Assembly (NCBI GenBank): GCA_963707915.1
Contig: OY970178.1
Location: forward strand, 3,094,103 to 3,158,102
Source: Candidatus Eiseniibacteriota bacterium
Lineage (GTDB): Bacteria; Eisenbacteria; RBG-16-71-46
Direction of reading: 5' to 3'
Length of the DNA stretch: 64,000 nucleotides
Below, piece by piece: positions 11,082 to 56,828 of the stretch. Numbering within the stretch: position 1 is the stretch's first letter; every line of letters starts with the position of its first letter. The notes below the pieces were generated by a model. That model had not been told where the DNA came from, did not search any database, and saw nothing but the letters and a program-made list of their open reading frames with translations. The position numbers and the translations under genes are program-made.

Positions 11082-11093
11082 TCGTGCCCCGTC

Positions 11094-12041: not shown

Positions 12042-12485
12042 GTGGGGCGTTGGCAACGCGACTCCTTCCGAGAGTGGGTCCGGAATGCGACTTCCGTATC
12101 GCTGCGTCGTGAGCGGCACCAGGTGGCGGCCCGACCGGTTGATGGGGCGCGTGATGGCGGCTCGCGGCCGAAAGGCATTCGCGTCGGGCTCGGAGGTGGA
12201 GACGTCCGGAGCTTGTCAGGCCCGCTTCCGCAATGCCGTGTTCGTGATCGTGGATCGAGCGCCATCCCTGCGCGCATGACGTGCACTATAGCGCAGAACG
12301 AAAGCGAAGTCTCCGTAGTAATACCGACCCACCTATCATCGCCCCGCCCCGGGGAATCTTGAGCGATATCGGCGTCCGCATGACGCTTCCGTCGATTCGG
12401 CCGCGCGGTCAAGTTGCGTCCGGCTAAACACGGTGGCGTCGATGGATTCCGCAATGGTGGCCTCATCCGCCCGAGGGGCGGGCCG

Positions 12486-13532
12486 TCAGCTGCCCGTGGT
12501 GTCGGGCGGCGTCGTGTCCTGCGGCAGGGCGAGCACCTGGAGCCGGCCGAGCGCGCGCTCGGTGATGGCGACGAGCCCCCGGCCGTCGGTCACGAACGAG
12601 GTCGGGTAGGAGACCTCGCCGGGAGCCGTGCCCTCGCCCGTGGCCAGGGTGAGGAAGCCGCCGGCGTGGTCGAAGACCTGCACGCTCTGGCGGATCTCGT
12701 CGCACACCCAGATGCGGCCGTCCCGCGTGCCCAGCACCCCCGACGGCAGCGAGATGTTGCCCGGCCCCATCTCGTGCGTCGCGAAGCCGCGCAGGTAGGC
12801 GCCCTCGCCGGTGAACACCTGCACGCCGAGGTCCGTGCGCGCGCAGGTCACCGCCAGCGTGCTGTCCGGCATGACGGCCAGCGCGGTCACGCTGTGCAGG
12901 CGGCCCGGGCCGCTCCCGGGCTCGCCCCAGGAGCCGGCGCGGGAGTAGTCGGCGGCGAAGCGGTGGATCCGGGAGCCCTCTCCGGAACTGGCCACGTAGA
13001 TGGTGCCGTCGGGGCCGACGGCGAGGGCGATCGGCCGCTCGCCGGGAAGGTCCAGGCGCCGCAGCGGGCGGCCGCGACGGTCGAGGACGTCCACGTACGA
13101 CGCCGAGTTGTCCGCCACGAGCAGGCGCCCCGCGCGGTCGAAGGCCAGCGCGCAGGGCTCGCCGTCCACCAGCCCGCCGTCGGGACCGGCGACCCGGTGG
13201 ACGAACCAGGTGAGGGCGCGCCCGGTCTTCGAGAAGACCTCGATCCGGTGGGCGCCGGTGTTGGCGACGTAGATCGCCCCGTCGAGCGGATCGAACGCCG
13301 CCCCGCGCGGCCGGCTCAGGTTGGTGCCGTCCGCGTAACCCCAGATGACCAGCCTAGGGGTGAGCAGGCGCGGGGCCGCGGCGACCGCGGCCAGCGCGCA
13401 CGCGAGCAGCGCGGCCGCCAGCCCCGGGGCGAAGACGTGGCGCCGGACCCGTGCGCTGCGGAGCACCGCGCCCGCTCGGAGGCCGGGCTTCGCCCGGGCC
13501 CCCGGCTTCTCCTCGAGCGTCGCACGCGTCAC
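12486..13532 (-). CDS. NHL-repeat beta-propeller protein, secreted
   Basis: NHL-like repeats (IYVANTGAHRIEVF, IYVASSGEGSRIHRF, RIWVCDEIRQSVQVF). The ORF has no ATG upstream, so a GTG start at 13532 was chosen before the hydrophobic segment RRHVFAPGLAAALLACALAAVAAA. Start is uncertain. Confidence 0.55.
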   Translation of the reverse strand: MTRATLEEKPGARAKPGLRAGAVLRSARVRRHVFAPGLAAALLACALAAVAAAPRLLTPRLVIWGYADGTNLSRPRGAAFDPLDGAIYVANTGAHRIEVFSKTGRALTWFVHRVAGPDGGLVDGEPCALAFDRAGRLLVADNSASYVDVLDRRGRPLRRLDLPGERPIALAVGPDGTIYVASSGEGSRIHRFAADYSRAGSWGEPGSGPGRLHSVTALAVMPDSTLAVTCARTDLGVQVFTGEGAYLRGFATHEMGPGNISLPSGVLGTRDGRIWVCDEIRQSVQVFDHAGGFLTLATGEGTAPGEVSYPTSFVTDGRGLVAITERALGRLQVLALPQDTTPPDTTGS

Positions 13533-13896
13533 GGGGCACGCACCTTTCTGCGGTCGGGCTGGCCCGGGCTCGCCGCCGGGGCGAGGCGGCACGGGGATCG
13601 AGTCCCTTCGGGTCCGCCCATCGGCGCAGACACTACGGTCAGCCTCGCCCGCTGGCAACGCACGCCCCGCGGCGCCACCCGCGGCCGGGCGTTGACGCGC
13701 CTCGACCCCGGCCCCTATGTTGCCGCCGGCCGCGCGGCGGCCCGCAGGGTGCCGGCCCGGGCGGCCGCACGGAGACCACGCCATGACCAGGAACGGGGCG
13801 GTCCATGACCCGCAGGGCGGCAATCCGAGGGGAGCTCGGGACGTGGCCATCGCCGAGCGCGAGCCGGTCCGGCGCGGCGGCGGGCGGGATCACCTG

Positions 13897-15492
13897 ATGC
13901 CTCGCCGGGCGTCCGTGCTGGTCGCGCTCCTGGCGCTCGCGGTCTACCTGCCCCTCTGCCCGCCGGTGTCGGGGGTCGGGGACGGGAGCGAGTTCACCCT
14001 GGTGCTCGCCACGAACGGGGTCGCCCACCCCACCGGCTACCCCCTGTACGTCCTGCTGGGGCACCTGTTCTGCGTGCTCCTGCACGCGCTGGGCGTGTCC
14101 TGGCCGCTGGCTGCCAACGCCTGGAGCGCGGTCGGGGCCGCGGTGGCCATCGGCTTCCTGCACGCGCTCGGAACGGAGCTCGTCCGGCTCGCCACGCCGG
14201 GCCTGGCGGGGACCGCCCGCTTCGTCGCGGCGCTCGTGCCGGCGGCCCTGATCGCGTTCCAGCCCATCCTGCTGGGAGTGGCGACGTCGGCCGAGGTGAA
14301 CAGCTGGAGCCTGGCCTGGGTCTGTGCGGCGGCCTGGGCCTTCCTGCGGCTGTCGGCCGCGGTGGCGCGCGACGGGGGCCCCGAGCCCTCGCCCGGCCGT
14401 GCGGCCGCCCTCTGGGGGCTGGTCTGCGGCCTCGGGTTGGCGCACCACCTCACCTCCGTGGTGGTGGCGCTGCCGCTCTCGGCGGGCCTGGTCGTGCTGC
14501 TCGCCCGGCGGCGGCGTCTTGGGCCCGGTCTGCTGTTCCGGGCCGCCGCGGCGGCGCTGGTCCCGCTCGCGAGCTACGGGATCATCGCCTGGCGCGCCTG
14601 GCACCCGGCCCGGGTGCAGTGGCCGGCGCTGGTCCCGGGAGCGGCCTCGGTGCTCGAGCACATCAGCGGAGCGCAGTACCGCCACTTCCTCGGCTACTTC
14701 GACCCGGCCGCCGACCACCGCGCGTTGCTGGCGCGCGCGGGCTATCCATTCCTCGTCCCGGGGTTGGCGCTGCTCCTGCTCGGTGTCCTGCGCGAGCGGC
14801 GGCCGGAGCGGCGGGTGGCGTGGGCGGCGCTCCTGGCCGCCGCGCTGTCGTCGGCCCTCTTCGCCTTCCGCTACGGGGTTCCCGACCCGGCGCCGTACTT
14901 CCTGCCGGCGATGGCGCTGGGCGCGGCCGCGGCCGCGCCCACGGTGGCGAGCCTGGCGGGCGGGGCCGGGCGCGAGCGGGCGCTTCGCCTGGGCGTGATG
15001 GGTCTGGCCGCGCTCGCCCTGGTCGTCCCCTGGATCCGCGGCGGGCTGGCGGAGCGCCGCGGACTGATCGAGAACGAGGCCATGCTCCGCTCGATGTGGT
15101 CCGCCGTGCCGTCGGACACGGCCATCGTCCTGTGGCCCGACGACCGCTTCATCCACCTGGTCGAGTACCAGATCCTGCGCGGCGAGAAGCCCGCGCTGTG
15201 GATCGCCACGCCGGACATGCTGCTGGAGGCCGCCACGCGCGCCGAGCTGCGGGGGCGCTTCGGGACCGACCCGCTCGAGGGGGTGCGCGTTCCCACGGTT
15301 CGCCCCGGCTTGCCGGACGAGGCGGCGACCATCCAGCGGTCGCTCGCCGCCATCGTCAGGAACCTGAACGCCCGCACGCGCGTCCCGGTGATCTGGTTCG
15401 ACCCGGGCGTGCCCGAGGTGCGGCAGTTGCGCAAGCCCTGGGAGCCGGTGGAAGGCTCCGGCGCGCGTCCCGCCACGCTCCTGTCGCCGTAG
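13897..15492 (+). CDS. DUF2723 / TMEM260-like polytopic membrane protein (GT-C-like glycosyltransferase fold)
   Basis: Multi-pass membrane protein with a DGSEF motif near the N-terminus and a soluble C-terminal domain. Alternative start at 13783 (MTRNG). Confidence 0.55.
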   Translation: MPRRASVLVALLALAVYLPLCPPVSGVGDGSEFTLVLATNGVAHPTGYPLYVLLGHLFCVLLHALGVSWPLAANAWSAVGAAVAIGFLHALGTELVRLATPGLAGTARFVAALVPAALIAFQPILLGVATSAEVNSWSLAWVCAAAWAFLRLSAAVARDGGPEPSPGRAAALWGLVCGLGLAHHLTSVVVALPLSAGLVVLLARRRRLGPGLLFRAAAAALVPLASYGIIAWRAWHPARVQWPALVPGAASVLEHISGAQYRHFLGYFDPAADHRALLARAGYPFLVPGLALLLLGVLRERRPERRVAWAALLAAALSSALFAFRYGVPDPAPYFLPAMALGAAAAAPTVASLAGGAGRERALRLGVMGLAALALVVPWIRGGLAERRGLIENEAMLRSMWSAVPSDTAIVLWPDDRFIHLVEYQILRGEKPALWIATPDMLLEAATRAELRGRFGTDPLEGVRVPTVRPGLPDEAATIQRSLAAIVRNLNARTRVPVIWFDPGVPEVRQLRKPWEPVEGSGARPATLLSP

Positions 15493-15555
15493 CCACGTCC
15501 GGCGCCCTGCCCGCACCGGCCGCCCCGGGGATCAGGTGGCCGGTGCGGCGCGCCC

Positions 15556-18500
15556 TCAGTCGCGCTTCGGCCCCATGGAGGGGTCGTGGCACTGGATGCA
15601 CAGCTCCCGGGTCGGCTCGTGCGTCAGCAGGGAAGGCTGGTCGCTCGAGTGGGGCAGGTGGCAGCCGACGCAGTCGAGCGGCTCGTTGGTGCGCGGGTCC
15701 ACGCCTCCCGAGACCTTGTGGAAGTGCTTGGACGTGTCCGAGTGGCACTGCCGGCACAGCGTGTCCACGTCCTCGGTGAGCAGCTTCTTGTGCTTCCCGC
15801 TGTGGGGATCGTGGCACGTCGCGCAGCCCTGCCCGAGCGCGGCGTGCACGTTCTTCCGGCGGAACGGGCGGGGATCGTGGCACTGGAAGCAGAGCTTCTC
15901 GCCCGCGCGCTTCAGCACGCCGGTCGCCATGCCCGCGTGCGCTCCGTGGCAGGAAAGGCAGGCCTCGCGCGACTGCAGCGGCGCGTGGACGACGGGCGCG
16001 GAGAGCCACGCTTTCTGCCCCTCGTGGCAGCGGAAGCACAGGTCGGGCACCGGCTGAGTCGTCGCCCCGGTCTTGCGCTCGCCATGACACTCGACGCACC
16101 TGCGCTGCGCGAAGGGCATGTGCGAGACGGGCTTGAGCATGCCGGGCCGGCCCGTCGCTCCGACGTGCGGATCGTGGCAGTCCACGCAGTTGGCCTTCGC
16201 GAGGGCGAAGCCCTGGTGCTTCGCCAGGAGCCCCTGCTTCTCGATCGAGTGGCAGGCGGTGCAGAGCGCGGCCCCCTGGCGCTTCGTCATGCCGGGCTCG
16301 TCGGTGCCGTGGCTCGCGTGGCAGGTCGAGCAGAGCCCCATGGCGACCGGCGCGTGGGGCTTGCCCTGCGCGATGCGGGTCTGCAGGTCCGCGTGGCAGG
16401 TGAAGCACAGCGCGCCGGTGCGCTGCTTCAGCAGCGCCGGGTTGGCGCTCTCGTGCGGCTCGTGGCAGGTCGCGCACTGGCCCGCGGCCGCGGGCGGGTG
16501 CCCGTGCTTGAGCCGGGCGTCGGCGACGGCCCCGGCATGGCACCGGACGCACAGCCGGATGGGCTGGGTGACCAGCAGCGCCGCGCGGTCGGAGGCGTGC
16601 GGCGTGTGGCAGGCGACGCAATCGCCCTTCGCGACCGGCGGATGCACGTGGCCGGCGGCCGCGCCCTGCGGTGTGGCCTTCTTCTTCGGGATCTGGTGGC
16701 ACGAGGCGCACAGCGTGGCCGCCGGGCGCGCCAGGTTCAGGGCCCCGGGCGCGCCGGTCTTCCCGTGGCACTTGGTGCACTCCTTCGACCCGAAGAACGG
16801 GTGTTCGCGGGCCGCCAGCAGGCCGGCCGACTTGGACGCGTGCGGGGTGTGGCACGAGAGGCAGTCGACCGCGGTCAGCGTGGCGCCGCCGTGTTTCCGG
16901 GTGAGGTCCGCGTCCTCCAGGTCGTGGCAGTCGCCGCACAGCGCGGGCACCTTCTTCGTCAGGGCGGGCGCCGCCACGCCGCCGTGGGGATCGTGGCAGG
17001 AGAGGCACTCGCCGCTCTCCACCGGGGGATGCACGGTGTCCCCTTCCTTGCCGATGCCGCCGTGGCACCGGGTGCACAGGGCGTTGGGCTCGTCGCGCAG
17101 CAGGGCCGCCCGCGACCCGCCGTGGGGCTCGTGGCAGGCCGCGCACTGCCCGGCCGCGGCCGGGGTGTGGGGTGCGGGGCCCTTGATCTTCGCGGCGATG
17201 TCGGCGTGGCACTTGGTGCAGAGGGTGGCCCCGCCGGTCGCGAGCAGGCGGTTGGTGAGCCCGCCGTGGGCGCCGTGGCACTCGAGGCACTGCCCGGCGG
17301 CTGCCGGCGCGTGCGGATGGGACGCCTTGGCCGCCATCACCTCCTGGCCGTGGCAGGGCGCGCAGATCTTCGCCGGCTCGCCGCGCAGCAGCTTGCCCTG
17401 GCCCGACTGGTGCGGGTCGTGGCAGGCGGTGCACTGGCCGGAGCGGAACGGCGGGTGCACCTCGAGGCCGACGAGCTTCTGCGCCAGGTCGGCGTGGCAG
17501 GTCCGGCAGAGCGCGCGCATGTCCTTGCGCAGGAGCCGCTCCTCGGCCGCCGAGTGGGGGGCGTGACAGCGCAGGCAGTCCTTCTTCGCGAACGGCGGGT
17601 GCGTCCCGGCGCTGTCGGCGCGGGCCCCGAGGTCCTTGTGGCAGTCGAGGCACATCGCGCCGTCGGCGGTCTTCAGGAGGTGCTCGCGGTCGGATCCGTG
17701 CGGCTGGTGGCAGCCGGCGCAGTCGCCGGCCGCGAACGCCTTGTGGACCACCGGCTGCTTCAGCGCTTCGGCGAGCTGGTCGTGGCACTGGCCGCAGAGT
17801 TCCAGCGGCTTCGACTTGAGCAGGCCCCGGGCGACCCCGCGGTGCGGGTCGTGGCAGGTGAGGCACTCGCCGCCCGCCGCCGGCGGGTGGGGCGTGGGTT
17901 TCTGGGACGCGGTCCGCACGTCGTCGTGGCAGGTGAAGCACAGCTCCGGCACCTCGGTGACGAGCTTCGCGCCCGCCTTGCCGTCCTCCATCGTGTGGCA
18001 GGCGTCGCAGCTGCCCTCGGCCGCGGGCGCGTGCGCGGTCTCGCGCCGGAGCGCGGTCTCGGTCGAGGCGTGCGGGTCGTGGCAGTCGAGGCAGGCCAGC
18101 CCGGCGACCGTGAGCTTCGCGTGCGCGGTGGCCGTGTCGGCGGGCTTGTGGCACGTCGCGCAGAGCTGGTCGGCCGGGCCGCGGAGCAGCCCGGCGTCCT
18201 TCGAACCGTGGGCGTCGTGGCACGCGTAGCAGTCGCCCCGGGCAAAGACCGCGTGCACGTGCGGCTTCTTCGCCTGGGCCGCGGCCTCCTCGTGACAGGG
18301 GAAGCAGGTGGCTTGCGGGCCCCCGGCGCGCAGCAGCCGCGGCTGGTCGGAGGCGTGCGGATCGTGGCAGGAGAGGCACTTGCCCTGTTCGTAGGCGGCG
18401 TGCGCGTGCTCGGGCTTCGCGGCCGTCTTCAGGGCGTCATGGCAGCCGAAGCACAGCTCCGGCGCCGGCTTCACCAGGATCAGCTTCTGCAGGAAGCCGT

Positions 18501-18717
18501 GGCTCTTGTGGCAGGCCGCGCAGTCCACCTTCGCGACCGGCGCGTGAACGAACTTCCTCGACCCGTAGTCCTGCTTCGCGTCCTTGTGGCAGTCGTAGCA
18601 GGGACGGCCCTTCGGCACCGGCTTCGCGGCGTCGACGTGTCCGGGCAGCAGCAGCGGGACGGCGCCGAGCAGTGCTGCCGCGAACAGCGCGCGCAGGAGA
18701 CGGGCGGGGCGGCTCAT
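15556..18717 (-). CDS. giant multiheme c-type cytochrome, 1053 aa, 42 CxxCH motifs in repeated c7-like units
   Basis: Signal peptide MSRPARLLRALFAAALLGAVPLLLPGHVDA. 42 CxxCH motifs counted by eye, spaced about 18-22 aa apart with intervening His ligands (…DPHAS…). Confidence 0.9.
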   Translation of the reverse strand: MSRPARLLRALFAAALLGAVPLLLPGHVDAAKPVPKGRPCYDCHKDAKQDYGSRKFVHAPVAKVDCAACHKSHGFLQKLILVKPAPELCFGCHDALKTAAKPEHAHAAYEQGKCLSCHDPHASDQPRLLRAGGPQATCFPCHEEAAAQAKKPHVHAVFARGDCYACHDAHGSKDAGLLRGPADQLCATCHKPADTATAHAKLTVAGLACLDCHDPHASTETALRRETAHAPAAEGSCDACHTMEDGKAGAKLVTEVPELCFTCHDDVRTASQKPTPHPPAAGGECLTCHDPHRGVARGLLKSKPLELCGQCHDQLAEALKQPVVHKAFAAGDCAGCHQPHGSDREHLLKTADGAMCLDCHKDLGARADSAGTHPPFAKKDCLRCHAPHSAAEERLLRKDMRALCRTCHADLAQKLVGLEVHPPFRSGQCTACHDPHQSGQGKLLRGEPAKICAPCHGQEVMAAKASHPHAPAAAGQCLECHGAHGGLTNRLLATGGATLCTKCHADIAAKIKGPAPHTPAAAGQCAACHEPHGGSRAALLRDEPNALCTRCHGGIGKEGDTVHPPVESGECLSCHDPHGGVAAPALTKKVPALCGDCHDLEDADLTRKHGGATLTAVDCLSCHTPHASKSAGLLAAREHPFFGSKECTKCHGKTGAPGALNLARPAATLCASCHQIPKKKATPQGAAAGHVHPPVAKGDCVACHTPHASDRAALLVTQPIRLCVRCHAGAVADARLKHGHPPAAAGQCATCHEPHESANPALLKQRTGALCFTCHADLQTRIAQGKPHAPVAMGLCSTCHASHGTDEPGMTKRQGAALCTACHSIEKQGLLAKHQGFALAKANCVDCHDPHVGATGRPGMLKPVSHMPFAQRRCVECHGERKTGATTQPVPDLCFRCHEGQKAWLSAPVVHAPLQSREACLSCHGAHAGMATGVLKRAGEKLCFQCHDPRPFRRKNVHAALGQGCATCHDPHSGKHKKLLTEDVDTLCRQCHSDTSKHFHKVSGGVDPRTNEPLDCVGCHLPHSSDQPSLLTHEPTRELCIQCHDPSMGPKRD

Positions 18718-19238
18718 CGCGCGGACACGGTGTCGTGGCCGGCCGGCCGCGTCGGGGGCGCGGTGGGCGGGCTCGCCGGGGCGACGGCCGACGTGTCGAC
18801 CATGATCGGCGCCCGCCCGGTGAACTCGACCTTGACCACCTGGAAGGCGAACATGGACTTGCGCGCGAAGTGGGGCGGCATCTTGAGCAGCGCCCAGGTC
18901 GTGTCCTGCGGCGCCTTCTTCTGGAAGACGATGATGCGGAAGGCGGGGTTGTCGGGCTGGTCGGACTTCGACATGATCTTGCGGGTGGTGAGGTCCATGG
19001 TGAAGTCGGGCACGTACTCGACCACGCGCGCCGAGAAGTCGGTGTCACCGAGGATGAAGTCCTGCTTCAGCTTCACCCGCTGCAGGTCGCGGAAGTCGTG
19101 GAAGACGCGATGCCGCACCAGCAGCGTCACGGCGTCCAGCCGCGCCCCGCCCGCGGCCGCCGGCGGCTTCACCTGCGCCTGGGACGGGAGGACCGCGACG
19201 AGTCCGATCAGGAGCCCGAGCCACCACGTGCGTCTCAT
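18714..19238 (-). CDS. small secreted/periplasmic hypothetical protein
   Basis: Start MRRTWWLGLLIGLVAVLPSQAQ with AAGGAAGGA upstream. Stop overlaps the giant cytochrome start by 4 nt. Confidence 0.55.
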   Translation of the reverse strand: MRRTWWLGLLIGLVAVLPSQAQVKPPAAAGGARLDAVTLLVRHRVFHDFRDLQRVKLKQDFILGDTDFSARVVEYVPDFTMDLTTRKIMSKSDQPDNPAFRIIVFQKKAPQDTTWALLKMPPHFARKSMFAFQVVKVEFTGRAPIMVDTSAVAPASPPTAPPTRPAGHDTVSAR

Positions 19239-19867
19239 CTGGATCCTTCCTTGCGGGGGCCCGGCGCGCGGCGCGCGCCCGCCACCCTGAAGTCGCCGAG
19301 CATGTCCTGGGCGAGCAGCGAGACCAGCCGTTCCGTGCTCATGACCCGTCCCCAGCCGAACAGCGTCTCGTGGTCCTCGCCGGAGCGGAAGTGCACACCG
19401 GCCCACAGGACCCGGCCGCTCGCGGCCTCGACCAGCCGCAGCGTGCCGCCCACGGCGGGCACGTCCAGGTCGCCGCTGCGCAACCGTCCGCTCTCGAGCA
19501 CGCTGCCCATCAGCAGGTAGGGGGCGCGCAGGGCCTCGCCCAGCTCGCGGACCTGCGCCGGCGTGAGCGAGCCGCCCGAACGGATGCCCAGCGAGTCCAT
19601 CGCCTCGTCCACCTGCCCGGGCTCGGCCATCTCGAGGGCGCCGCTGGCGACCAGCTGGGCGAAGAACACCTTGCTGAAGAGCGCGCCCTGCTCCTCGCGG
19701 CCCGCGAGGTTCTCGAACGGCACGAGCGCGGCGCGCGGGTGGTCCGCGGGCACGGTGCCTCCGGCGGAGCGACGCAGGGCCGGTGCGCTCCCGGCGCACA
19801 GCACCGCCAGGCCGGCGAGGACGGCGAGCCGCAGCCCGATCGCGATGCGCCCGTGACGTCGAGCCAT
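19235..19867 (-). CDS. lipoprotein with an LpoB/CsgG-like (TolB-N-like) fold
   Basis: Signal/lipobox region ...LAVLCAGSAP, then the motif AALVPFENLAGREEQG. Paralog of the next gene. 4-nt overlap with the downstream gene. Confidence 0.6.
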   Translation of the reverse strand: MARRHGRIAIGLRLAVLAGLAVLCAGSAPALRRSAGGTVPADHPRAALVPFENLAGREEQGALFSKVFFAQLVASGALEMAEPGQVDEAMDSLGIRSGGSLTPAQVRELGEALRAPYLLMGSVLESGRLRSGDLDVPAVGGTLRLVEAASGRVLWAGVHFRSGEDHETLFGWGRVMSTERLVSLLAQDMLGDFRVAGARRAPGPRKEGSR

Positions 19868-19869
19868 GG

Positions 19870-20460
19870 TCAGAACGCCCTCCCGCGCAGCCGGGCCACG
19901 AGCTCGTCGCAGGCGTCCTGCGTCAGCCGTCCCAGCGAGCGCGAACTCTGGCCGAGGACCGGGATGCGGCTCTTGCCGCGCTTCGCGATCGAGGACCGCC
20001 AGACCACGTTCCCGGTGTTGGCGTCCAGCAGCTCCGCGTCGAACGACAGGACCGGGATGTCGCCGTTCTCCGTGCGCTGCATGGTGTACTCGCTGACCGC
20101 GCCGCGCAGCACGCCGGTGGCTCCCAGCCGGAGGGCCACCTCCTTGAGCTTCTGCAGGTCATACGTCCCGTCCGTCTCCGGCATGACGTTGTCCTTCAGC
20201 AGGGCGGTGCGGAACTCCTCGGGCTGCACGATCTGGTAGCGGTCCGTCATGATCAGCGAGGTGATGAAGGCGCGCGTGACGCGCGGTCCGGCCAGCCCCT
20301 CGCTGCTCAGGTTGGTGAACGGCAGCACGGCGATCCTGGTGTAGAAGGCCATGTCCGCGTCGGGATTCAGGTAGACCCGGGAGACCGGGGCGCAGGAGAG
20401 CAGGAGCAGGCCCAGGGCGGCGGCCGCCATGCGTGCCAGAGGATGGTGCTTCCCGGCCAT
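19870..20460 (-). CDS. lipoprotein with an LpoB/CsgG-like fold (paralog of 19235..19867)
   Basis: Lipobox LLLSCAP, then RIAVLPFTNLSSEGLAG, a motif typical of the LpoB/CsgG/GNA1162 lipoprotein fold. Confidence 0.65.
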   Translation of the reverse strand: MAGKHHPLARMAAAALGLLLLSCAPVSRVYLNPDADMAFYTRIAVLPFTNLSSEGLAGPRVTRAFITSLIMTDRYQIVQPEEFRTALLKDNVMPETDGTYDLQKLKEVALRLGATGVLRGAVSEYTMQRTENGDIPVLSFDAELLDANTGNVVWRSSIAKRGKSRIPVLGQSSRSLGRLTQDACDELVARLRGRAF

Positions 20461-20461
20461 G

Positions 20462-22111
20462 CTACCTCCAGAGACTCTGGGACAAGGTCGCGCTCACCTG
20501 CCGGGCGCGGGTGGGAAGACCCGGGTCCGCCTGAGTGTAGCGAATCGTGGCGTGCAGGTCGCGGTTCAATGCCACGGCGAGCCAGGCGCCGTAGGCCTCA
20601 CGGCCGGCCGTGAGCGACGTGCCGGGGTCGCGCAGTTGCTGGTTCGCGCGGGTGTAGGTGCCGCTCGCCTGGACGGTGCGCGAGGGGGTCCACTGCACGC
20701 TGGCCTGCAGCGTCGAGCGGTCGGGCGCGTTGCGCACGAAGCCCCCGGCGCGGCCCCAGCTGCCGCTCGCCTGCAGCTTCTCCGAGGCCCGCCAGTCGAG
20801 GCTCGTCGTGTAGGTGGTCGAGGCCGGGCCGTCGCCCCGCAGCGTCGCGCCGGTGCGGTAGCGCCGCAGGTTCGCATTGAGGGTGACGGTGCGCAGCGGC
20901 ACCGCGCGCAGGCCGGCGGCGGTCTGCAGCGTCACCAGGGTCGCGGCCGGGCCGGTTTCGAGGCCCGCGCTGGGGCGGTCGGCCCTGGAGAGCGAGGCCT
21001 CGCCGAAGGCGTCGAACCCCTTCGAGAGCCGCATCCGCGTGTTCGAGCGGATGCTCTGGACCGGGCGGGCGCGGTCGCCGGGGAGCCAGTTCCACGACTG
21101 GTTCGCGCTCGCTCCCAACCTCCACCCGGGCCGGGCGTCGCCCTCGGCCGAGGCCGACGTGCTCAGGAAGCTCTCGGTCTCCTCGCTGCCCGCGACGTTG
21201 ACGCTGCGCACTCCGCCGCCGCCGGACAACTGCACCGCCTTCCAGGGCCGGTGGATGACGCTGAGTGAGCCGTCGTGATCGACCTCGGTCGTGGTGGCGA
21301 ACTGCGTGGTGCCCACGCTCCGGAAGCTGTAGGCGAGACTGGCAGAGGTCCGCTTGGAGATCGCCAGCCCCCCGTTCGCGGACGCGCTGTGCACGCGCGA
21401 GGTGGCGTCATGGGCCCCGTCGACCTGCCTGCGCGACTGGTTGTAGTCGTACTGGAGGACGGCATTCGCACGCCGGTTCTCGAGGCGCACGGTCGAGCCG
21501 GCGTTGACGTTCTCCTCGCTCCCGGTCCGCCGCCGCGCGCTGCGGTCCTCGTTGGCCAGGTCGCCGTAGCCCGCGTGGAGGTTCAGCCGCCCCAGGTCGT
21601 AGTTGGCCATCAGGCTGCGCCTCACGGCCGCTGTGCCCGGGAACGGGCCGCTCGCATCCTGGTTGCGACGGTTCCACGAGGCCGACAGCTGGGGAAGCCC
21701 GGCCCGCTGGAAGTAGCCCGTCAGGTTGGTCTCCTGCTGGCGGGTCGTGAGGTTGCGCGAATCGACGACCGTGATCGGCCGGTAGGAGCCGAACAGCCCG
21801 AACAGCGGATGGGCCAGGCGCAGGGAGCCCTGCGGGAGGATCTGGCGGTCGGGTCGTCCGATGGTGCGCTGGTCGGTGAACTGGAACCGGGACGAGAGCT
21901 CGTAGGCCTTGCGGAAGCGGCGGGAGTAGTCGAGTTGCACGGAGGTGAGCCACCATTCCACGTCGTTGGCCGGGTCCAGCAGGCTGAGCTTCGAGTATTG
22001 CACCTCGGCGACTCCCCGGATCTTCTGCTGGGCGTCAGCGGGCCCGGCGAGCAGAACGGCCGCCATCGATGCCGCCACCAGCCCCGCCCCCAGCGCTCTT
22101 CGCCGCATCAT
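20462..22111 (-). CDS. outer-membrane beta-barrel protein
   Basis: Start MMRRRALGAGLVAASMAAVLLAGPADA. 549 aa rich in alternating strands and in Ser/Thr/Asn/Gln/Tyr. Start overlaps the upstream cytochrome stop. Confidence 0.6.
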   Translation of the reverse strand: MMRRRALGAGLVAASMAAVLLAGPADAQQKIRGVAEVQYSKLSLLDPANDVEWWLTSVQLDYSRRFRKAYELSSRFQFTDQRTIGRPDRQILPQGSLRLAHPLFGLFGSYRPITVVDSRNLTTRQQETNLTGYFQRAGLPQLSASWNRRNQDASGPFPGTAAVRRSLMANYDLGRLNLHAGYGDLANEDRSARRRTGSEENVNAGSTVRLENRRANAVLQYDYNQSRRQVDGAHDATSRVHSASANGGLAISKRTSASLAYSFRSVGTTQFATTTEVDHDGSLSVIHRPWKAVQLSGGGGVRSVNVAGSEETESFLSTSASAEGDARPGWRLGASANQSWNWLPGDRARPVQSIRSNTRMRLSKGFDAFGEASLSRADRPSAGLETGPAATLVTLQTAAGLRAVPLRTVTLNANLRRYRTGATLRGDGPASTTYTTSLDWRASEKLQASGSWGRAGGFVRNAPDRSTLQASVQWTPSRTVQASGTYTRANQQLRDPGTSLTAGREAYGAWLAVALNRDLHATIRYTQADPGLPTRARQVSATLSQSLWR

Positions 22112-23511
22112 CGAGCATAGTTGATCGTGTACGACTCGGGATCGTGACACGTCGGCGAGCAGGTGCCGCCGCTGGCCGTCTCGGTGTAGGAGCCGATGCC
22201 CGGGTTGCGCCCCGTGGCGATGAGATGGCGCTGGTCGGGCGAGCCGTGCGTGACGTGGCAGGCGTAACAGGGGACGTGCTCCTCGCCGACGTGCTCGGCG
22301 TGGCCCTTGTCCACCCCGGGCTTGTTGAACCGCGAGAGGGCCCTCGTCGCCTCGGGCGCGCCCGGGTCCGCGTAGACTTCGGGGGTGTGGCAGGCGAAGC
22401 AGATCTCGCCGGTGCTCATCGTCCGCGGCTGGGGCGAGGCGGTGTAGGGCTGCGTCAGGATGTAGCGGTACGAGGAGCCGTGCGGCCCGCGCGTGGACCC
22501 GACGAAATCGCTGCCGTGGCAATCGCCGCAGCGCGTGAGGCTGGCGGCGCTCCAGCCGGGCGCGAACGCGCCGGCCGGGATCCCCGGGTTGCGGCCCGCG
22601 GCCTCGACCGGGTGGAACGACTCGTTCGCCGGGTTCAGGACCAGGGCCAGGTCGGTCTGCCCCGAGGGCTGGCTGGTCCAGGACGAATGGCACTTGAAGC
22701 AGAGCTGGTATTCCGCCACCGGCGCGCTCAGCGTATCGGAGCCGGCGGCGAACGTGAACGTGGGGGGCGTGCCCGCCGGGCCGTTCTGCACCAGCACCCG
22801 ACTCACGCCCAGGTTGGTGCGCGAGAGCCCGGGGGCGGCCGGCGTGGCGGGCCGGTCGGCGCCGGCCACGTGCGGGTTGTGGCAGTCGACGCACTCGGAG
22901 TGGCGCGCGTTCGCGGGCGAGACCCCGAAGTCGGCGGGATCGGATTCGGCCGGTCCCTTGTGGCGCCCGGAGTAGAGCCGCACCGGGTGCCGGTAGACCT
23001 TGGCGAGATCGGCGCCGATGTTGGTGGAAGCGGGCGCGCCGTCATGGCAGGTGAGGCAGAGAGTCTCCTCGCGCCCGATGGCGAGCGCCGGGATCAGCCC
23101 GCCGGCGTCCGACCAGCCGTGCGGGTCGTGGCAGTTGAGGCACTTGCCCTCCGCGCCCGGCTCGGTGCGTGGCGGGGGGGTGGGCCCCGGCCAGGCGGTC
23201 CCGGTGGCCGTGCCGTGAGAGGCGCCGGAGTACACCCAGGGCCCCGCGTAGCTGCCGGCCGTCCAGGGCTTGTCGTGGCAGCGGTCGCAAAGCGAGTTGT
23301 CGTCCGGGCCGAGCAGCGCGTGCCCGTAGACGACATCCCCCTGGCCGTGCACGGTGTGGCACTGGTCGCAGTCGCCCGCGTGCGCGCCCTGCGCCAGGAG
23401 CTTCTCGACGCCGGCGGGGGTGCGATAGGGATGCAGGGGCTGCGCTCCAGTCGCCAGCAGGCACACCAACGCCAGCCCCGCGAGGCTCGAGACGAGATCC
23501 CTCGGTCGCAT
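22108..23511 (-). CDS. multiheme c-type cytochrome (about 9 CxxCH plus 1 CX3CH)
   Basis: Start MRPRDLVSSLAGLALVCLLATGAQP, possibly a lipoprotein. Motifs CDQCH, CDRCH, CLNCH, CLTCH, CVDCH, CFKCH, CGDCH, CFACH, CYACH and CSPTCH. Confidence 0.8.
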   Translation of the reverse strand: MRPRDLVSSLAGLALVCLLATGAQPLHPYRTPAGVEKLLAQGAHAGDCDQCHTVHGQGDVVYGHALLGPDDNSLCDRCHDKPWTAGSYAGPWVYSGASHGTATGTAWPGPTPPPRTEPGAEGKCLNCHDPHGWSDAGGLIPALAIGREETLCLTCHDGAPASTNIGADLAKVYRHPVRLYSGRHKGPAESDPADFGVSPANARHSECVDCHNPHVAGADRPATPAAPGLSRTNLGVSRVLVQNGPAGTPPTFTFAAGSDTLSAPVAEYQLCFKCHSSWTSQPSGQTDLALVLNPANESFHPVEAAGRNPGIPAGAFAPGWSAASLTRCGDCHGSDFVGSTRGPHGSSYRYILTQPYTASPQPRTMSTGEICFACHTPEVYADPGAPEATRALSRFNKPGVDKGHAEHVGEEHVPCYACHVTHGSPDQRHLIATGRNPGIGSYTETASGGTCSPTCHDPESYTINYAR

Positions 23512-24718: not shown

Positions 24719-25276
24719 GAGTTTGCTCCTCGTGGTGGTGGGGGATGCTTCGGGTTCGAATCTTCAGGAGTCGGGTCTGAAGGTAACGAGCGAGTTGCGC
24801 TGACCCCCCTTTCGAACCCGGGAGTGGGAACGAGTGCTGGTCCAGCGGCGTTTCGCAGGACCGTGCTCGATTCGAACGGACCTTCCTGAGCCTTCGGATC
24901 GGGCGGGAGGCGGGAGGCGTTCTGCCTCCCTCCGTCACCCTGCGTCTCGACCACGAGTGACTCAGGACGTTGAGACGGGAACGATGATACGGTAATGTGA
25001 ACTGCGCGTCTAGGTGAAAGTACTGATGCGAGGTCCGCAGTCCACCTGTGGTCTGGTGTTCTAAAGTACCATGTGCCATCTAGATACGTAGACTAATGGC
25101 TATCAACGACATGAGTCCGCTTCTGGGAACGGATGGTCCTTACCGGCGCTTGCCGAATCAACTGGAGTCTGAAATCCTCCGTCGACTAGGCCATTTCCCG
25201 CTCTTGTGTTCCATAAAGAAACGATTGGTTGGATGGTCTTCCGCCCGTCGAGTGACCCATAATTCCGAGGGAAGTC

Positions 25277-27487
25277 GTGAATCTTGGTGACCTGCTGCTG
25301 AAGCTCGCATTCCTGCTCGCGGTCCCGGCCGCCTTCCTCTTCTTCCAGGACGTCCGGGGCCGCCGCGGGCCCGCAGCGGCTGAATGGATGTTCGGGCTCC
25401 ACTCGGCCGCCATCCTCGGCGCGGTCGTCACGCTCTGGGCGCTCTTCCTCGGCCACCGCTTCGAGTACGCCTACATCGCCGAGTACAGTTCCCGCGCCCT
25501 CTCGCCCGCGCTCACCTTTGCGGCCTCCTGGGCCGGGCAGGAGGGCAGCATCCTGCTCTGGGCACTGCTCATGGCGCTGGTGGGCGTCGCCCTGATGCGG
25601 CAGCCGGGGCCGCTCTCCCGGCCGGCGATGTTCTTCGTCGCGCTCGCCCAGCTCGGCCTGCTGGTGCTGCTCCTGGTGCGCAGTCCGTTCCGCGTGAGCC
25701 ACGTCACCCCGGCGGACGGCCAGGGCCTGAACCCGCTGCTCGAGGATCCCTGGATGGTCGTCCATCCGCCGGTGCTCTTCGTGGGGTACGCGGCGATGGT
25801 GGCCCCCTTCGCCCTGGCGGGCGCCGCGCTGGTGCTCGGTCTGTGGCGCGAATGGAACCGCGCCGTTTGGCCCTGGGTGCTGTTCGCGGTGCTCTCGCTC
25901 GGAACCGGCATCGCCCTCGGCGGCATCTGGGCCTACAAGGTGCTGGGCTGGGGCGGCTACTGGGGCTGGGACCCGGTCGAGAACGCCTCGCTCGTGCCCT
26001 GGCTCGTCGCGGTCGCGCTCCTGCACGGCCTGTTCATCCAGAAGACCACCGGTGGGCTGGTGCGCAGCAACCTGCTCATGGCGTTCCTGGGATGGCTCAC
26101 CGTGCTCGGCGGGACCTACCTGACCCGCAGCGGCGTGCTGCAGGACTTCTCGGTCCACTCCTTCGCCGACTCGGGCCTCAACGTGCCGCTGATCGTCAAC
26201 CTGGCCGGCGCCCTGCTGATCGCGGCCGTGCTGCTGGCCTGGCGCTGGCGCGCGATCGAGTCGAGGCCCACCCGCTGGACCAGCGTCTCGCGCGAGGCCG
26301 CGCTGTGGGTCGGGCTCGTCACGGTGCTGGTCTTCGCGGCCATGGTGACCTTCGGCACGATCGCTCCGCTGCTCACCTCGCTGGCCGGCCGGCCCGCCAG
26401 CGTGCGCCCGTCGTTCTACCAGTCGATGAGCGTGCCGCTCGGCGTCCTGCTGGTGCTGGTCATGGCGGTCGCGCCGGCGCTGCGCTGGTCGCGGCAGGTG
26501 GGGTTCGGCTGGCTCACGGCGCTCGCCCCGGGGTTCCTGTGCGCGCTGCTGGCGTTCGGGGGCGCGCTCCTCACGGGCGTGCGGGACGGGGCGCACCTGG
26601 CGCTGCTCGCCACGACCGGGTTCGCCCTCGGGATCAACGCGTGGATGACCGTGAAGCTGTTCCGCCGCGGCTGGAGCTACGGCGCGGGCTACCTCGGGCA
26701 CGCGGGGCTCGCCATCATGATCCTGGGGATGGTGATGTCCACGGCGCTGGGACGCACCGAGCGCCTGACGCTGCGGACGGGCGAATCGGGGCAGGCCCTC
26801 GGCTACACGATCACCTACCGCGGAGACCATTTCGATCCGCGCGGTGGCCACCAGCTCGACGTGCTGGTGAGCCGCAAGGGCTGGAGCTTCGAGGCCCGCC
26901 CGCAGCTGCTGAAGATGCCGCAGGGCGAGGGCAGCATGCACAAGCCGGCCATCAGCGGCCGGCGCGAGCTCTACCTGTCGCCAGTGGACGTGCAGCGGCT
27001 GGAGAGCGACGCGGACCGGATCGTGTGGCTGCCGCAGGGCCAGGCGGTGCCGGCGCTGGGACTGACCTGGACCTTCGTGGGGTTCCGGATGGAGTCGCAC
27101 GAGGCCATGCAGGTCCTGGCCGACATCGATGTCCGCCGGAGCGGGCCGGCGGTGCGGATCTCCCCCGGGATGCGCGCCGACGCGCAGGGGACCCGGGCGC
27201 TGCCGGTCGAGGTGGCCGGCCTGGGGCAGGTCACGGTCGAACGGATCGACGCGGATCGCAAGCGGGTGGGTGTGCTGCTCCCGGGTGCCGGGGCGGCGAG
27301 CCAGGCGGTGCTGGAGTTCAGCACCAAGCCGCTGGTCAACCTGGTCTGGGTGGGCGCGCTCATCACCCTGCTCGGGGCCGCGCTGGCCGGCCTGCGCCGT
27401 GCCATCGAGGTCGTGCCTGGCGCGCGACGCCGGCGGGCCGCCGCCGCTCCGGCCGCTCCAGCCGTCCCGACCGGCGGGGCCCGGTAA
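25277..27487 (+). CDS. ccmF: cytochrome c-type biogenesis protein CcmF/NrfE (heme lyase)
   Basis: GTG start with GAGGGAAG upstream. Polytopic membrane protein with the Trp-rich WGGYWGWDPVEN motif typical of CcmF. Confidence 0.85.
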   Translation: MNLGDLLLKLAFLLAVPAAFLFFQDVRGRRGPAAAEWMFGLHSAAILGAVVTLWALFLGHRFEYAYIAEYSSRALSPALTFAASWAGQEGSILLWALLMALVGVALMRQPGPLSRPAMFFVALAQLGLLVLLLVRSPFRVSHVTPADGQGLNPLLEDPWMVVHPPVLFVGYAAMVAPFALAGAALVLGLWREWNRAVWPWVLFAVLSLGTGIALGGIWAYKVLGWGGYWGWDPVENASLVPWLVAVALLHGLFIQKTTGGLVRSNLLMAFLGWLTVLGGTYLTRSGVLQDFSVHSFADSGLNVPLIVNLAGALLIAAVLLAWRWRAIESRPTRWTSVSREAALWVGLVTVLVFAAMVTFGTIAPLLTSLAGRPASVRPSFYQSMSVPLGVLLVLVMAVAPALRWSRQVGFGWLTALAPGFLCALLAFGGALLTGVRDGAHLALLATTGFALGINAWMTVKLFRRGWSYGAGYLGHAGLAIMILGMVMSTALGRTERLTLRTGESGQALGYTITYRGDHFDPRGGHQLDVLVSRKGWSFEARPQLLKMPQGEGSMHKPAISGRRELYLSPVDVQRLESDADRIVWLPQGQAVPALGLTWTFVGFRMESHEAMQVLADIDVRRSGPAVRISPGMRADAQGTRALPVEVAGLGQVTVERIDADRKRVGVLLPGAGAASQAVLEFSTKPLVNLVWVGALITLLGAALAGLRRAIEVVPGARRRRAAAAPAAPAVPTGGAR

Positions 27488-28385: not shown

Positions 28386-28483
28386 CCCCGGTCCCGCCGG
28401 GACGGACCGCGCGGTTGCCCGGGGACGCCACCCGGGCCCTCCGGCCGTGGACCGTTGCGCCACGGCTCCTGTGCTATCCTGCG

Positions 28484-28500
28484 ATTCCCTAAGGGAATCC
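28484..28500 (+). promoter_or_regulatory. perfect palindrome GATTCCCT/AAGGGAATC overlapping the clpB ribosome-binding site
   Basis: GATTCCCTAAGGGAATC lies immediately 5' of the clpB ATG at 28503. It can form a 7-bp hairpin that occludes the AAGGGAA Shine-Dalgarno, or serve as a dimeric operator. Confidence 0.3.
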
Positions 28501-28502
28501 GC

Positions 28503-31172
<2,670 letters not shown>

Positions 31173-56434: not shown

Positions 56435-56828
56435 GGGAGACTCCTCCGCGTCGAGGTGAAGAATCGGCATGGGGCTACCGCTCAAACGACCCGAGGCCGC
56501 GCGAATCACACGGGAAGTGCGGGCGCGAGGGATCCCCGAGGCGGGGCGGACGGGCCGTGCCGGGGGCCACCGGGAACGAGCTTGCGTCGGGCGAAGGGCC
56601 CGGCTTTACTTGCGCTCACGACGAGGGGTCTGCGTCCGCAAATGACCCCGAGCGGGGCCGGGACGTTCCGCCGGAGCCCGCGCCGGCGAACTCCCGAGCC
56701 GCGGCTGGAGGGTGGGTGTCGAATCCCGAAGGTCAACTCCACTGGGTCGGCGGGGCGCCCGCGGGCGCCGCGCCCCGTTGATCGACTTTTCCGTGGCCGC
56801 CACCCGGGCGGGGCCGGTCCGGCTGGGG

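Follow-up and report, generated by a model that had tools for sequence, protein, structure and literature searches.

How do electrons cross the periplasm to reach OmcS-type filaments? A gene in the 64,000-nt stretch of DNA analysed here (the window) bears on this question: its product carries 42 CxxCH haem-binding motifs in one chain, and the 42-haem unit that it represents is a candidate, open to testing, for the periplasmic section of the route. What kind of cytochrome is this, which proteins accompany it, and could it reach across the periplasm? A sequence-only reading of the window had described a 1053-aa polymer of c7-type triheme modules, a candidate haem wire, and had hinted at Anaeromyxobacter as the source. 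The gene and its motif count were borne out, and the module type and the source were not.

The cytochrome gene, called G here, lies on the minus strand, which the earlier reading had not given. It begins with ATG, the earliest start codon of its open frame, and has one stop, at its end. The translation contains exactly 42 CxxCH motifs that account for 84 of 84 cysteines, and no CX3CH or CX4CH variants occur in it. Could the count be due to chance or a frame error? In 20,000 shuffles of the composition of G the mean was 0.58 motifs and the maximum five, and no motif occurs in any of the five remaining frames of the interval. Thus, a chance origin of the 42 motifs is excluded. Codon-position GC (0.74/0.54/0.92) marks the G frame as coding; a 1234-aa stop-free ORF found on the other strand is an artefact of high GC. 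Furthermore, 42 motifs are present, and colinear, in 58 of the 67 complete genes from species-representative loci, so G is not an artefact of assembly or reading frame, the latter a risk that the sequence-only reading had raised.

The motifs start mostly 23 or 25 aa from one another (range 20-30), which leaves linkers of mostly 18 or 20 residues (range 15-25); a spacing of 18-22 aa had been reported and is correct as a linker length. The intervening histidine ligands that had been noted are also present. G has 93 histidines, 51 of them outside the motifs, and an alignment of 30 orthologues shows 39 of these to be invariant and two more to be at least 90% conserved. This conservation fits bis-His ligation of nearly every haem. 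In the same 30 orthologues no methionine column reaches 70% conservation (G has 11 methionines in total), and a His-Met haem in G is unlikely because no methionine is conserved. The signal peptide of G has no lipobox. Its orthologues share the N-terminus AxA-AK(T)CYDCH, in which cleavage would follow AxA, and an AF2 model places a helix at residues 4-27; the global shape of that model is uncertain (pTM 0.53). In a word-seeded homologue search none of the matches listed exceeded 40% full-length identity to G, while relatives of the neighbouring genes reach 82-90%. The nearest orthologues of G were probably hidden from a word-seeded search limited to 8000 candidates in this repetitive family, and the low values are not taken as a sign of high divergence.

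What is the repeat unit of G? Linker identity within the protein is 0.265 at lag 2 and 0.24 at lag 4, compared to 0.182 at lag 3 and 0.166 at lag 1. Because the self-similarity of the linkers peaks at lags 2 and 4, the repeat period read from the sequence is two haems, not three. The Pfam and NCBIfam models likewise divide the protein into 21 'doubled CXXCH' units (PF09699). The sequence-only reading had assigned G to the c7 polymers, as a longer relative of GSU1996 and GSU2210, and Pfam Cytochrome_C7 (PF14522) does match it in 11 partial matches with an E-value of 4.6e-45. The c7-polymer domains of GSU1996 have a triheme period and one His-Met haem each. The assignment is refuted on the features that can be tested, namely the dihaem period, the lack of a conserved methionine, and the lack of any c7 or GSU1996-type structure in PDB sequence and fold searches with G, and we give it virtually no chance of being correct. 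MtrA was the sole structural relative recovered by those searches. G combines an MtrA-like fold with doubled-CXXCH repeats and bis-His haem packing. A decahaem cytochrome of the MtrA/DmsE family (TIGR03508) is encoded elsewhere in the window, at 11094-12119.

The linkers carry positional information as well. Their irregular lengths are kept position by position among orthologues. In a test of positional orthology the best match fell on the diagonal for 13 of 41 linkers (mean 0.30 on the diagonal vs 0.20 off it), a weak signal because the linkers are short.

Is G one protein or several? Fusion of several ORFs had been named as a possible flaw. No such artefact is present, yet evolution offers a parallel: in other lineages the unit is encoded by two adjacent genes with 26 and 16 haems. 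Such split pairs occur in loci L059 (a Desulfuromonadaceae MAG), L084, and L085, and they are colinear with G over aa 11-657 and 656-1045. The stand-alone 26-haem proteins align to aa 11-657 (L084) or 22-651 (L059) and stop a few residues past haem 26. The 16-haem proteins of all three loci start with a signal peptide of their own, align from aa 656/666 to 1045 at 35-38% identity, and have the linker-length signature of the C-terminal part of G. A representative search gave two homologue classes: one matches profile positions 13-652 of G, and 10 of its 12 members have 26 haems; the other matches positions 653-1040, and 8 of its 10 members have 16. The split point coincides with the second of three module junctions in G; the first lies at linkers 8/9, between the 9-haem and 17-haem modules, and the third at linkers 34/35, between the 9-haem and 7-haem modules. 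Sequence comparison indicates that most lineages encode the 42-haem unit as a single fused protein and that others divide it, always at the same junction.

A pair of this kind belongs to the osc (omcS-companion) cluster of G. sulfurreducens (Shen et al. 2025), as portrayed in two papers that cite it (PMC13194489, PMC12977616). According to these accounts, OscI (GSU2495) is a protein of ~70 kDa with 26 haems (PMC12977616), OscJ is GSU2494 (PMC13194489, PMC12977616), and both are tabled as periplasmic (PMC13194489). In our comparison L059, together with the two citing papers, served as proxy for the osc cluster, with GSU2495 and GSU2494 taken by description. G is very probably the fused homologue of the 26- and 16-haem pair of an osc-type cluster, judged by this colinearity.

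Table 1. Position and description of the operon, the parts of G, and adjoining features (numbering of the window).
Feature	Position	Strand	Description
NHL-repeat beta-propeller protein, downstream	12486..13850	-	OscK-like position; Pfam NHL E 2e-14
G, 42-haem c-type cytochrome	15556..18717	-	1053 aa, 21 doubled-CXXCH units; very probably fused OscI-like + OscJ-like
OscJ-like part of G, haems 27-42	15556..16710	-	9-haem + 7-haem modules
Junction 2 of G, between haems 26 and 27	16711..16764	-	His-less linker 26, aa 652-669; split point in other lineages
OscI-like part of G, haems 1-26	16765..18627	-	9-haem + 17-haem modules
Signal peptide of G, aa 1-30	18628..18717	-	Cleavage predicted between VDA and AK; read from sequence
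F, secreted protein, 174 aa	18714..19238	-	Family unknown; stop overlaps G ATG by 4 nt
E, LpoB/CsgG-like protein, 210 aa	19235..19867	-	Weak Pfam LpoB match
D, LpoB-family lipoprotein, 196 aa	19870..20460	-	Lipobox LLSC; PF13036 26.1 bits, cutoff 22.3
C, outer-membrane beta-barrel, 549 aa	20462..22111	-	28 predicted strands; signal peptide
B, cytochrome, 467 aa	22108..23511	-	9 CxxCH; signal peptide
A, hexahaem cytochrome, 357 aa	23645..24718	-	OmcS-like candidate nanowire subunit (OscC/GSU2501-like)
Sigma-70-like promoter match, upstream of A	24984..25012	-	Weak; consensus may not be this phylum's
CcmF/NrfE-like haem lyase	25277..27487	+	Divergent from operon; putative accessory maturation factor

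G is the last of seven operon genes (A-G). It is preceded by those for the 6-haem (A) and 9-haem (B) cytochromes, barrel C, the LpoB-like D and E, and F; none of the seven encodes a polytopic membrane protein. No inner-membrane electron donor or acceptor was found to be encoded near the operon. The promoter match is the single one in 10 kb (shuffle mean 0.2). A terminator scan at the operon gave nothing convincing; terminator-like matches were at background level and on the wrong strand.

The first gene links the operon to nanowires. A profile of A built from 23 orthologues matches OmcS (6ef8_A) from its residue 1 with an E-value of 2.2e-14. Besides its six CxxCH motifs the family has an invariant CxxCHxMH and six invariant non-motif histidines. 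The histidine of the CxxCHxMH aligns with His16 of OmcS, which we take to be the equivalent of the inter-subunit haem ligand in the OmcS structure. A, which occurs in 49 of 53 loci, is a candidate subunit of an OmcS-like filament by these sequence features. B is 40-48% identical to a 9-haem protein at the equivalent position in Nitrospirota and Deltaproteobacteria loci; other lineages have 6 or 12 haems there.

C, D, and E form a channel-like set. In phmmer comparisons with the proteins that L059 encodes at the OscF and OscG positions, D scored 58 and 43 bits and E 48 and 42 bits, and both are clearly homologous to them; each occurs in 48 of 53 loci. The barrel was harder to trace. A tblastn search for C in the loci gave nothing, matches came with iterated profiles, and an hhalign probability of 81% to the proteins at the OscE position, a suggestive match, covers the first ~200 residues only. 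Judged by position, and for D and E by homology as well, the three proteins would correspond to the OscEFG channel. That channel has been proposed to secrete OmcS filaments, according to the papers that cite the osc study (PMC13194489, PMC12977616).

Might G itself leave through this channel and extend from the cell surface? The presence of a channel-like set in the cluster is consistent with such export, and giant extracellular cytochromes have been proposed in PCC3 clusters (PMC5566968). However, the table of one citing paper lists OscI and OscJ as periplasmic (PMC13194489), the OmcS-like A is already a natural extracellular component of the operon, and the split halves carry ordinary Sec signal peptides with no further sorting signal visible. 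We regard a secreted G as improbable.

A second possibility is a porin-cytochrome conduit. Here the 16-haem OscJ-like part would be threaded through barrel C in the way that MtrA sits in MtrB, C would be an insulating sheath, not a secretion channel, and A and/or B would receive the electrons at the surface. MtrA is the only structural relative of G, and barrel C is large, plug-less, short in its loops, and predicted to have 28 strands; MtrB has 26. The barrel and cytochrome genes share an operon and are co-conserved, and a split between haems 26 and 27 would part a periplasmic rod from a barrel insert. We consider this arrangement, including the roles that it gives to A, B, and C, unlikely, though less so than the secretion of G.

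In 40 of 53 loci gene F directly precedes the 42-haem gene, and its product has the conserved motifs HR, DF, SxSDxxxNPA, WAF, and PHF. Pfam (E <= 1) and PDB profile searches with F returned noise only and gave no support for its identification as a ResB periplasmic domain. An NHL protein adjoins the cluster in 49 of 53 loci, and that of the window scores 26-30 bits against the L059 NHL proteins (phmmer). The haem lyase is possibly an accessory maturation factor for the operon. A CcmF-like gene also lies beside the cluster in L043 and L060, and ResB and CcsA lie beside the split pair in L085.

The system is widespread. Zixibacteria, Ignavibacteriales, Eisenbacteria, Krumholzibacteria, Gemmatimonadota, Nitrospirota, and Latescibacterota are among the groups in which the 42-haem unit occurs together with the OmcS-like hexahaem, the 28-strand barrel, and the LpoB/CsgG-like pair. 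Fused or split, the 42-haem total spans at least ten phyla. As for the host, Candidatus Eisenbacteria account for nearly all of the named ClpB relatives (76-80% identity), and the sole Anaeromyxobacter orthologue of G, from a MAG, is 38% identical, which argues against the suggested Anaeromyxobacter source. A literature search found no paper on 42-haem cytochromes and none that treats LpoB, multihaem cytochromes, and a porin together.

This distribution bears on a third possibility, that G is a capacitor whose 42 haems would store electrons against an intermittent supply of external acceptors or donors, and that it has neither a fixed geometry nor a bridging role. Storage of this kind is a common proposal for very large multihaem cytochromes (PMC11495043, PMC10734462), and neither a membrane anchor nor an inner-membrane partner is encoded. 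However, a store needs no exact haem number, yet 42 (or 26 + 16) haems are kept across phyla at 33-40% identity. The irregular linkers conserved by position argue against it as well, and the strict synteny with the barrel and the OmcS-like protein points to a defined assembly. A mere store is a reading we hold to be quite unlikely.

How might G work? We find it somewhat probable that G is a single-chain, MtrA-like bis-His wire, the fused form of OscI and OscJ, that acts as follows. Its Sec signal peptide would direct it to the periplasm, without a lipid anchor, and its 42 close-packed haems would bridge this compartment. In MtrA and OmcS each haem takes up roughly 0.8 nm, from which the length of the chain is estimated at ~33 nm. 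It would start at a postulated inner-membrane quinol oxidoreductase and end at the outer-membrane channel (C/D/E), where G would give electrons to, or take them from, the base of the OmcS-like filament. It would stand in for diffusible periplasmic carriers. Against this picture stand the lack of a nearby gene for an inner-membrane donor or acceptor, a proposal that small Ppc cytochromes charge OmcS in Geobacter, and the statement that some Geobacter EET phenotypes can do without OmcS filaments (PMC13194489). The periplasm-spanning role that had been suggested is plausible, and the picture of a very large wire is supported by the signal peptide, the bis-His ligation, and a density of 25 aa per haem.

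A bolder proposal starts from the haem total, which behaves as a constant of the system (42, or 26 + 16, in at least ten phyla). The chain may be a rigid cable of ~33 nm that acts as a 'molecular ruler' from the inner membrane to the channel and plugs into the base of an OmcS-type filament. We put this forward as a tentative idea that is probably not correct in full. If true, it would explain how nanowires can be connected to the respiratory chain when no diffusible carriers take part. If the fixed number reflects a length constraint, G would be one of the few electron-transfer proteins that serve as spacers; should the number reflect the lack of a mechanism for changing the number of units, the finding would amount to a tidy annotation only. 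The unit may also serve as a genomic marker, in that 42 (or 26 + 16) CxxCH motifs beside an OmcS-like gene would point to nanowire-type electron transfer in uncultured phyla.

How does the operon compare with known systems? Neither the peat EET clusters (bioRxiv 2026.05.27.727921) nor the porin-MHC clusters of Verrucomicrobia (PMC5615132) represent this system, since their cytochromes have only ~8-13 haems each and their parts differ. The c7 polymers GSU1996 and GSU2210 resemble G as 'wires' of repeated small haem-binding units from metal-reducing bacteria, but their period is triheme, whereas G has a dihaem period, all bis-His ligation as predicted, and an MtrA-like fold. MtrA of Shewanella MtrCAB (PDB 6r2q chain A) and its relatives DmsE and MtoA hold 10 haems in ~300-350 aa, compared to 42 in 1053 aa in G. 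No specific similarity to MtrB was found in the window barrel with its 28 predicted strands, and in place of the MtrC-type decahaem the window has an OmcS-like partner.

The PCC3 clusters of Fe(II)-oxidising Proteobacteria (He et al. 2017, PMC5566968; Hoover et al. 2023, PMC10734462) share with the window a porin and very haem-rich, repeat-built cytochromes (22-39 aa per haem), and a length sufficient to cross the periplasm has been proposed for their periplasmic cytochrome of 21-27 haems (PMC5566968, PMC10734462). In contrast, they include an inner-membrane dihaem-b protein with five TM segments and a giant extracellular cytochrome of 10-85 haems (PMC5566968), both absent from the window, and their haem numbers, compared by description, vary whereas the total here is fixed at 42. 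No PCC3-type taxa were present among the homologues of G. The Uet cluster of Candidatus Tenderia and Gallionella (PMC10734462) includes a doubled-CXXCH multihaem cytochrome, a beta-barrel porin, NHL-repeat proteins, and a PPIase, part types that all occur in the osc-type loci of this analysis. However, the Uet cytochrome has 11-12 haems, its periplasmic carriers are separate c7-type triheme proteins, and no OmcS-like hexahaem has been described for it (PMC10734462).

The closest counterpart is the osc cluster, which in the L059 proxy has an upstream OmcS-like hexahaem, channel-type genes (a barrel and OscF/G-like proteins), NHL propellers, and a 26-haem followed by a 16-haem doubled-CXXCH cytochrome. 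The lack of an OscH-type PPIase and the cytochrome at the OscD position count against the match. A PPIase occupies the OscH position directly upstream of the 26-haem gene in L059, L084, and L085, where the window has the unrelated F. The OscD position holds a haem-less propeller-like protein in L059 and the 9-haem B in the window. Barrel C has 549 aa compared to ~700-734 aa in osc, and the host is likely an Eisenbacteria MAG rather than G. sulfurreducens. The osc-type cluster for OmcS-type cytochrome nanowires is recently described and widely distributed, and G, one 42-haem polypeptide in place of two cytochromes, is very probably the one-piece version of its cytochrome pair; at the level of sequence, the comparison shows the two large osc-type cytochromes to be one conserved, MtrA-like 42-haem unit.

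The cytochrome gene G of the window was found to start at an ATG that is the first start of its open frame. The sequence-only reading that it encodes a 1053-aa cytochrome with 42 CxxCH motifs was borne out. The count is exactly 42, all 84 cysteines of the protein lie inside motifs, and no CX3CH or CX4CH variants are present in its sequence. Composition shuffles of G averaged 0.58 motifs and never exceeded 5. The five remaining frames of 15556-18717 contain no CxxCH, and codon-position GC singles out the coding frame. A stop-free antisense ORF (15586-19290, plus strand, 1234 aa) spans the entire gene. It was rejected as a gene because its codon-position GC (0.89/0.56/0.75) is that of a non-coding shadow of high-GC G, and a GC content of 72-75% accounts for its freedom from stops. 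Successive motifs mostly begin at intervals of 23 or 25 aa, leaving linkers that are usually 18 or 20 aa long, in line with the spacing of 18-22 aa first noticed. The haem density is 25.1 aa per haem. G begins with a Sec signal peptide that has a predicted cleavage between VDA and AK and no lipobox.

How is the haem array built? Pfam and NCBIfam tile G with 21 'doubled CXXCH' units (PF09699, E 2e-214; TIGR01905), and c7, c3, NrfB-like, and MtrC models give weaker, overlapping matches. Self-comparison of the 41 linkers yielded a repeat period of two haems, with linker identity of 0.265 at lag 2, compared with 0.166 and 0.182 at lags 1 and 3. The 18/20 alternation of linker lengths is interrupted at three junctions (linkers 8/9, 25/26, and 34/35); at each, a linker of 23-25 aa bearing two His precedes one that lacks His. 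These junctions delimit modules of 9, 17, 9, and 7 haems. An alignment of G with 29 orthologues (33-39% identity) showed that all 42 motifs and 39 further His are invariant, that another two His reach at least 90% conservation, and that no Met is conserved, a pattern that argues for bis-His ligation of essentially all haems. Linkers of these irregular lengths occupy matching positions in 28-29 of 30 orthologues, so the array is old and fixed; on the same grounds, recent tandem expansion was rejected as its origin.

A homologue search with G returned at least 533 matches. Among the matches listed, 92 have a length of 1000-1110 aa, and 89 of these carry exactly 42 CxxCH at only 34-40% identity to G. 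Where a source is named, it is Zixibacteria, GN15, Krumholzibacteria, Latescibacterota, or Gemmatimonadaceae. Scanning species-representative genomes yielded 80 loci, every one from metagenome-assembled genomes (MAGs), and extended the range to Ignavibacteriales, Eisenbacteria, Nitrospirota/Thermodesulfovibrionia, Glassbacteria, Acidoferrum, Geobacteraceae, Desulfuromonadaceae, and one Anaeromyxobacter MAG. An earlier hint that the DNA itself comes from Anaeromyxobacter is unsupported: named relatives of the window's ClpB (76-80%) are almost all Candidatus Eisenbacteria, and its metagenomic relatives stand at about 90% identity. Exactly 42 haems were present in 58 of 67 complete genes from the species-representative loci.

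The homologues include a second size class with 26 haems (about 650-720 aa), whose linker signature is that of haems 1-26 of G and whose C-terminal end falls at junction 2. In an Acidobacteria (L084), a Planctomycetes (L085), and a Desulfuromonadaceae (L059) locus, a 26-haem gene is followed by a 16-haem gene whose start codon overlaps the stop codon of the first. Aligned to G, the 26-haem protein covers aa 11-657. The 16-haem proteins have their own signal peptide, cover aa 656/666-1045 of G at 35-38% identity, and share its linker signature there. An exhaustive profile search covering 1.84 billion representatives recovered the same partition, with 26 haems in 10 of 12 members of a class at profile positions 13-652 and 16 haems in 8 of 10 members of a class at positions 653-1040. 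The total of 42 is thus maintained on one chain or on two. A length constraint could account for this exact conservation. Equally, the diverged repeats (~26% identity at lag 2) could offer unequal recombination no substrate.

GC-frame analysis and the ORF list place G at the end of a minus-strand operon, A-G. The intergenic distances from B through G are, in order, -4, +1, +2, -4, and -4 nt, the A-B gap is 133 nt, and one sigma-70-like site lies upstream of A.

Features of the window, with positions counted along the whole stretch
Feature	Positions	Strand	Description
PAS-histidine kinase-receiver hybrid	3120-5483	minus	787 aa
Signal-peptide protein	9522-11081	minus	519 aa, no Pfam match
DmsE/MtrA-family decahaem	11094-12119	minus	TIGR03508 168.6 bits, just below cutoff 192
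NHL gene	12486-13850		downstream of G
TMEM260-like membrane protein	13717-15492	plus	protein O-mannosyltransferase-like
G	15556-18717	minus	single ORF, 1053 aa, one terminal stop
F	18714-19238	minus	174 aa
E	19235-19867	minus	210 aa
D	19870-20460	minus	196 aa, lipobox
C	20462-22111	minus	549 aa
B	22108-23511	minus	467 aa, 9 CxxCH
A	23645-24718	minus	357 aa, 6 CxxCH
CcmF/NrfE-like haem lyase	25277-27487	plus	stand-alone
ClpB	28455-31172		
CHAT-domain/TPR protein	56712-59756	plus	1014 aa

Synteny was assessed with iterated profiles in 53 distinct loci having a gene of at least 41 haems and a flank of at least 8 kb. A and an NHL propeller were each present in 49 loci, B, C, D, and E in 48 each, and F in 40. 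The set A, C, D, and E was complete in 47 (89%), in every case sharing a strand and falling into one of three or four syntenic arrangements. The key partner of G is A. Its profile (23 orthologues) matches the OmcS nanowire subunit (6ef8_A, E 2.2e-14) from OmcS residue 1 and matches OmcE weakly. A CxxCHxMH motif and six non-motif His are invariant in A orthologues; the second His of this motif aligns with OmcS His16, the inter-subunit bridging ligand of the filament. F, translationally coupled to G, represents a family of conserved secreted or lipidated proteins (about 150-200 aa; motifs HR, DF, SxSDxxxNPA, WAF, and PHF) with no relative in Pfam or PDB. It is missing from Nitrospirota/Deltaproteobacteria-type clusters and from split-type clusters, in which a PPIase occupies its position.

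Haems are spaced roughly 0.8 nm apart in MtrA and OmcS. At this spacing, 42 haems would extend about 33 nm, 26 about 21 nm, and 16 about 13 nm. The PCC3 literature makes the case that 21-27 haems could span a periplasm (PMC5566968; PMC10734462). G would best be read as a trans-periplasmic cable running from a putative inner-membrane quinol oxidoreductase to an outer-membrane C/D/E assembly and an OmcS-like filament. The foremost competing model is Mtr-like, with the barrel C sheathing the 16-haem end of G. Roles as a capacitor or a secreted wire are less likely because of the exact haem count and strict synteny. As for the direction of flow, cbb3-type oxidase genes (CcoP-like cytochrome, COX1, FixO; L084 positions 13585-16617) lie directly 3' of the split pair in L084, an Acidobacteria MAG. 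They hint at inward electron flow in at least some hosts, and the L084 system may work in that direction, with metal oxidation coupled to O2 reduction.

Other genes surround the operon. The decahaem and its 519-aa partner form a second, separate porin-cytochrome-like pair (9522-12119, minus strand). Their closest homologues (58-63% and 50-52%) lie in L012 and in Eisenbacteria loci L046 and L049, directly 3' of the 42-haem gene. The haem lyase gene and the operon are divergent, with a 559-bp spacer between them. The cluster also has a CcmF-like neighbour in Ignavibacteria loci L043 and L060, and ResB and CcsA lie beside the split pair of L085. The lyase may be a dedicated maturation factor for haem-dense proteins. 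The TMEM260-like gene converges on the 3' end of G, and the 63-bp spacer between them holds a 9-bp inverted repeat, GCACCGGCC...GGCCGGTGC. In the window, no link to the cluster was seen for the CHAT-domain/TPR protein or the PAS hybrid.

The haem number of G is by itself unremarkable. Published proteins carry 85 to >100 haems (PMC11495043; PMC5566968), and the CxxCH count of relatives goes up to 131. Three doubled-CXXCH relatives have 131 motifs in 3592 aa (P0317), 129 in 3274 aa (P0322), and 120 in 3949 aa (P0397), and P0092 (1629 aa) contains three copies of a 17-haem block. In a 38-haem class (P0101, P0104, P0108; about 980 aa), junction motifs recur at intervals of five to nine haems, giving modules of 9, 5, 5, 5, 7, and 7. 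Its context (L086) differs, with NHL proteins, small cytochromes, and a 578-aa protein without a Pfam match. In the searchable literature, no description was found of the fused 42-haem form, its breadth across FCB-group and related phyla, the haem total conserved across fused and split forms, the fixed split point, the MtrA-like dihaem architecture of OscI/OscJ-type proteins, or the F family. The omcS-companion (osc) cluster is a known kind of system, and Shen et al. 2025 term its machinery 'widespread', so part of the apparent novelty may already be covered there.

In L059, an OmcS-like hexahaem gene is followed by eight genes encoding a 530-aa propeller-like protein, a 734-aa protein with no Pfam match, a GNA1162/CsgG-like lipoprotein, a 364-aa protein, a PPIase, the 26-haem and 16-haem cytochromes, and an NHL protein. 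This is the layout published for the Geobacter sulfurreducens osc cluster in PMC13194489. There, citing Shen et al. 2025, oscC is GSU2501, oscI is GSU2495, and oscJ is GSU2494, and the roles given are folding for OscH, secretion for OscE/F/G, and filament morphology for OscD. Direct comparison of D and E of the window with the OscF- and OscG-position proteins of L059 gave matches of 42-58 bits, and the barrel family of C matches OscE-position proteins over about 200 residues (81% hhalign probability). On these matches, made through the Desulfuromonadaceae proxy and two citing papers, the window operon is read as a probable osc-type cluster carrying OscI and OscJ as a fusion. Four features set it apart from the Geobacter type. 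It has no PPIase, whose place is taken by F; a 9-haem cytochrome stands in the slot that a haem-less propeller-like gene fills in L059; the barrel is smaller; and the NHL gene lies downstream.
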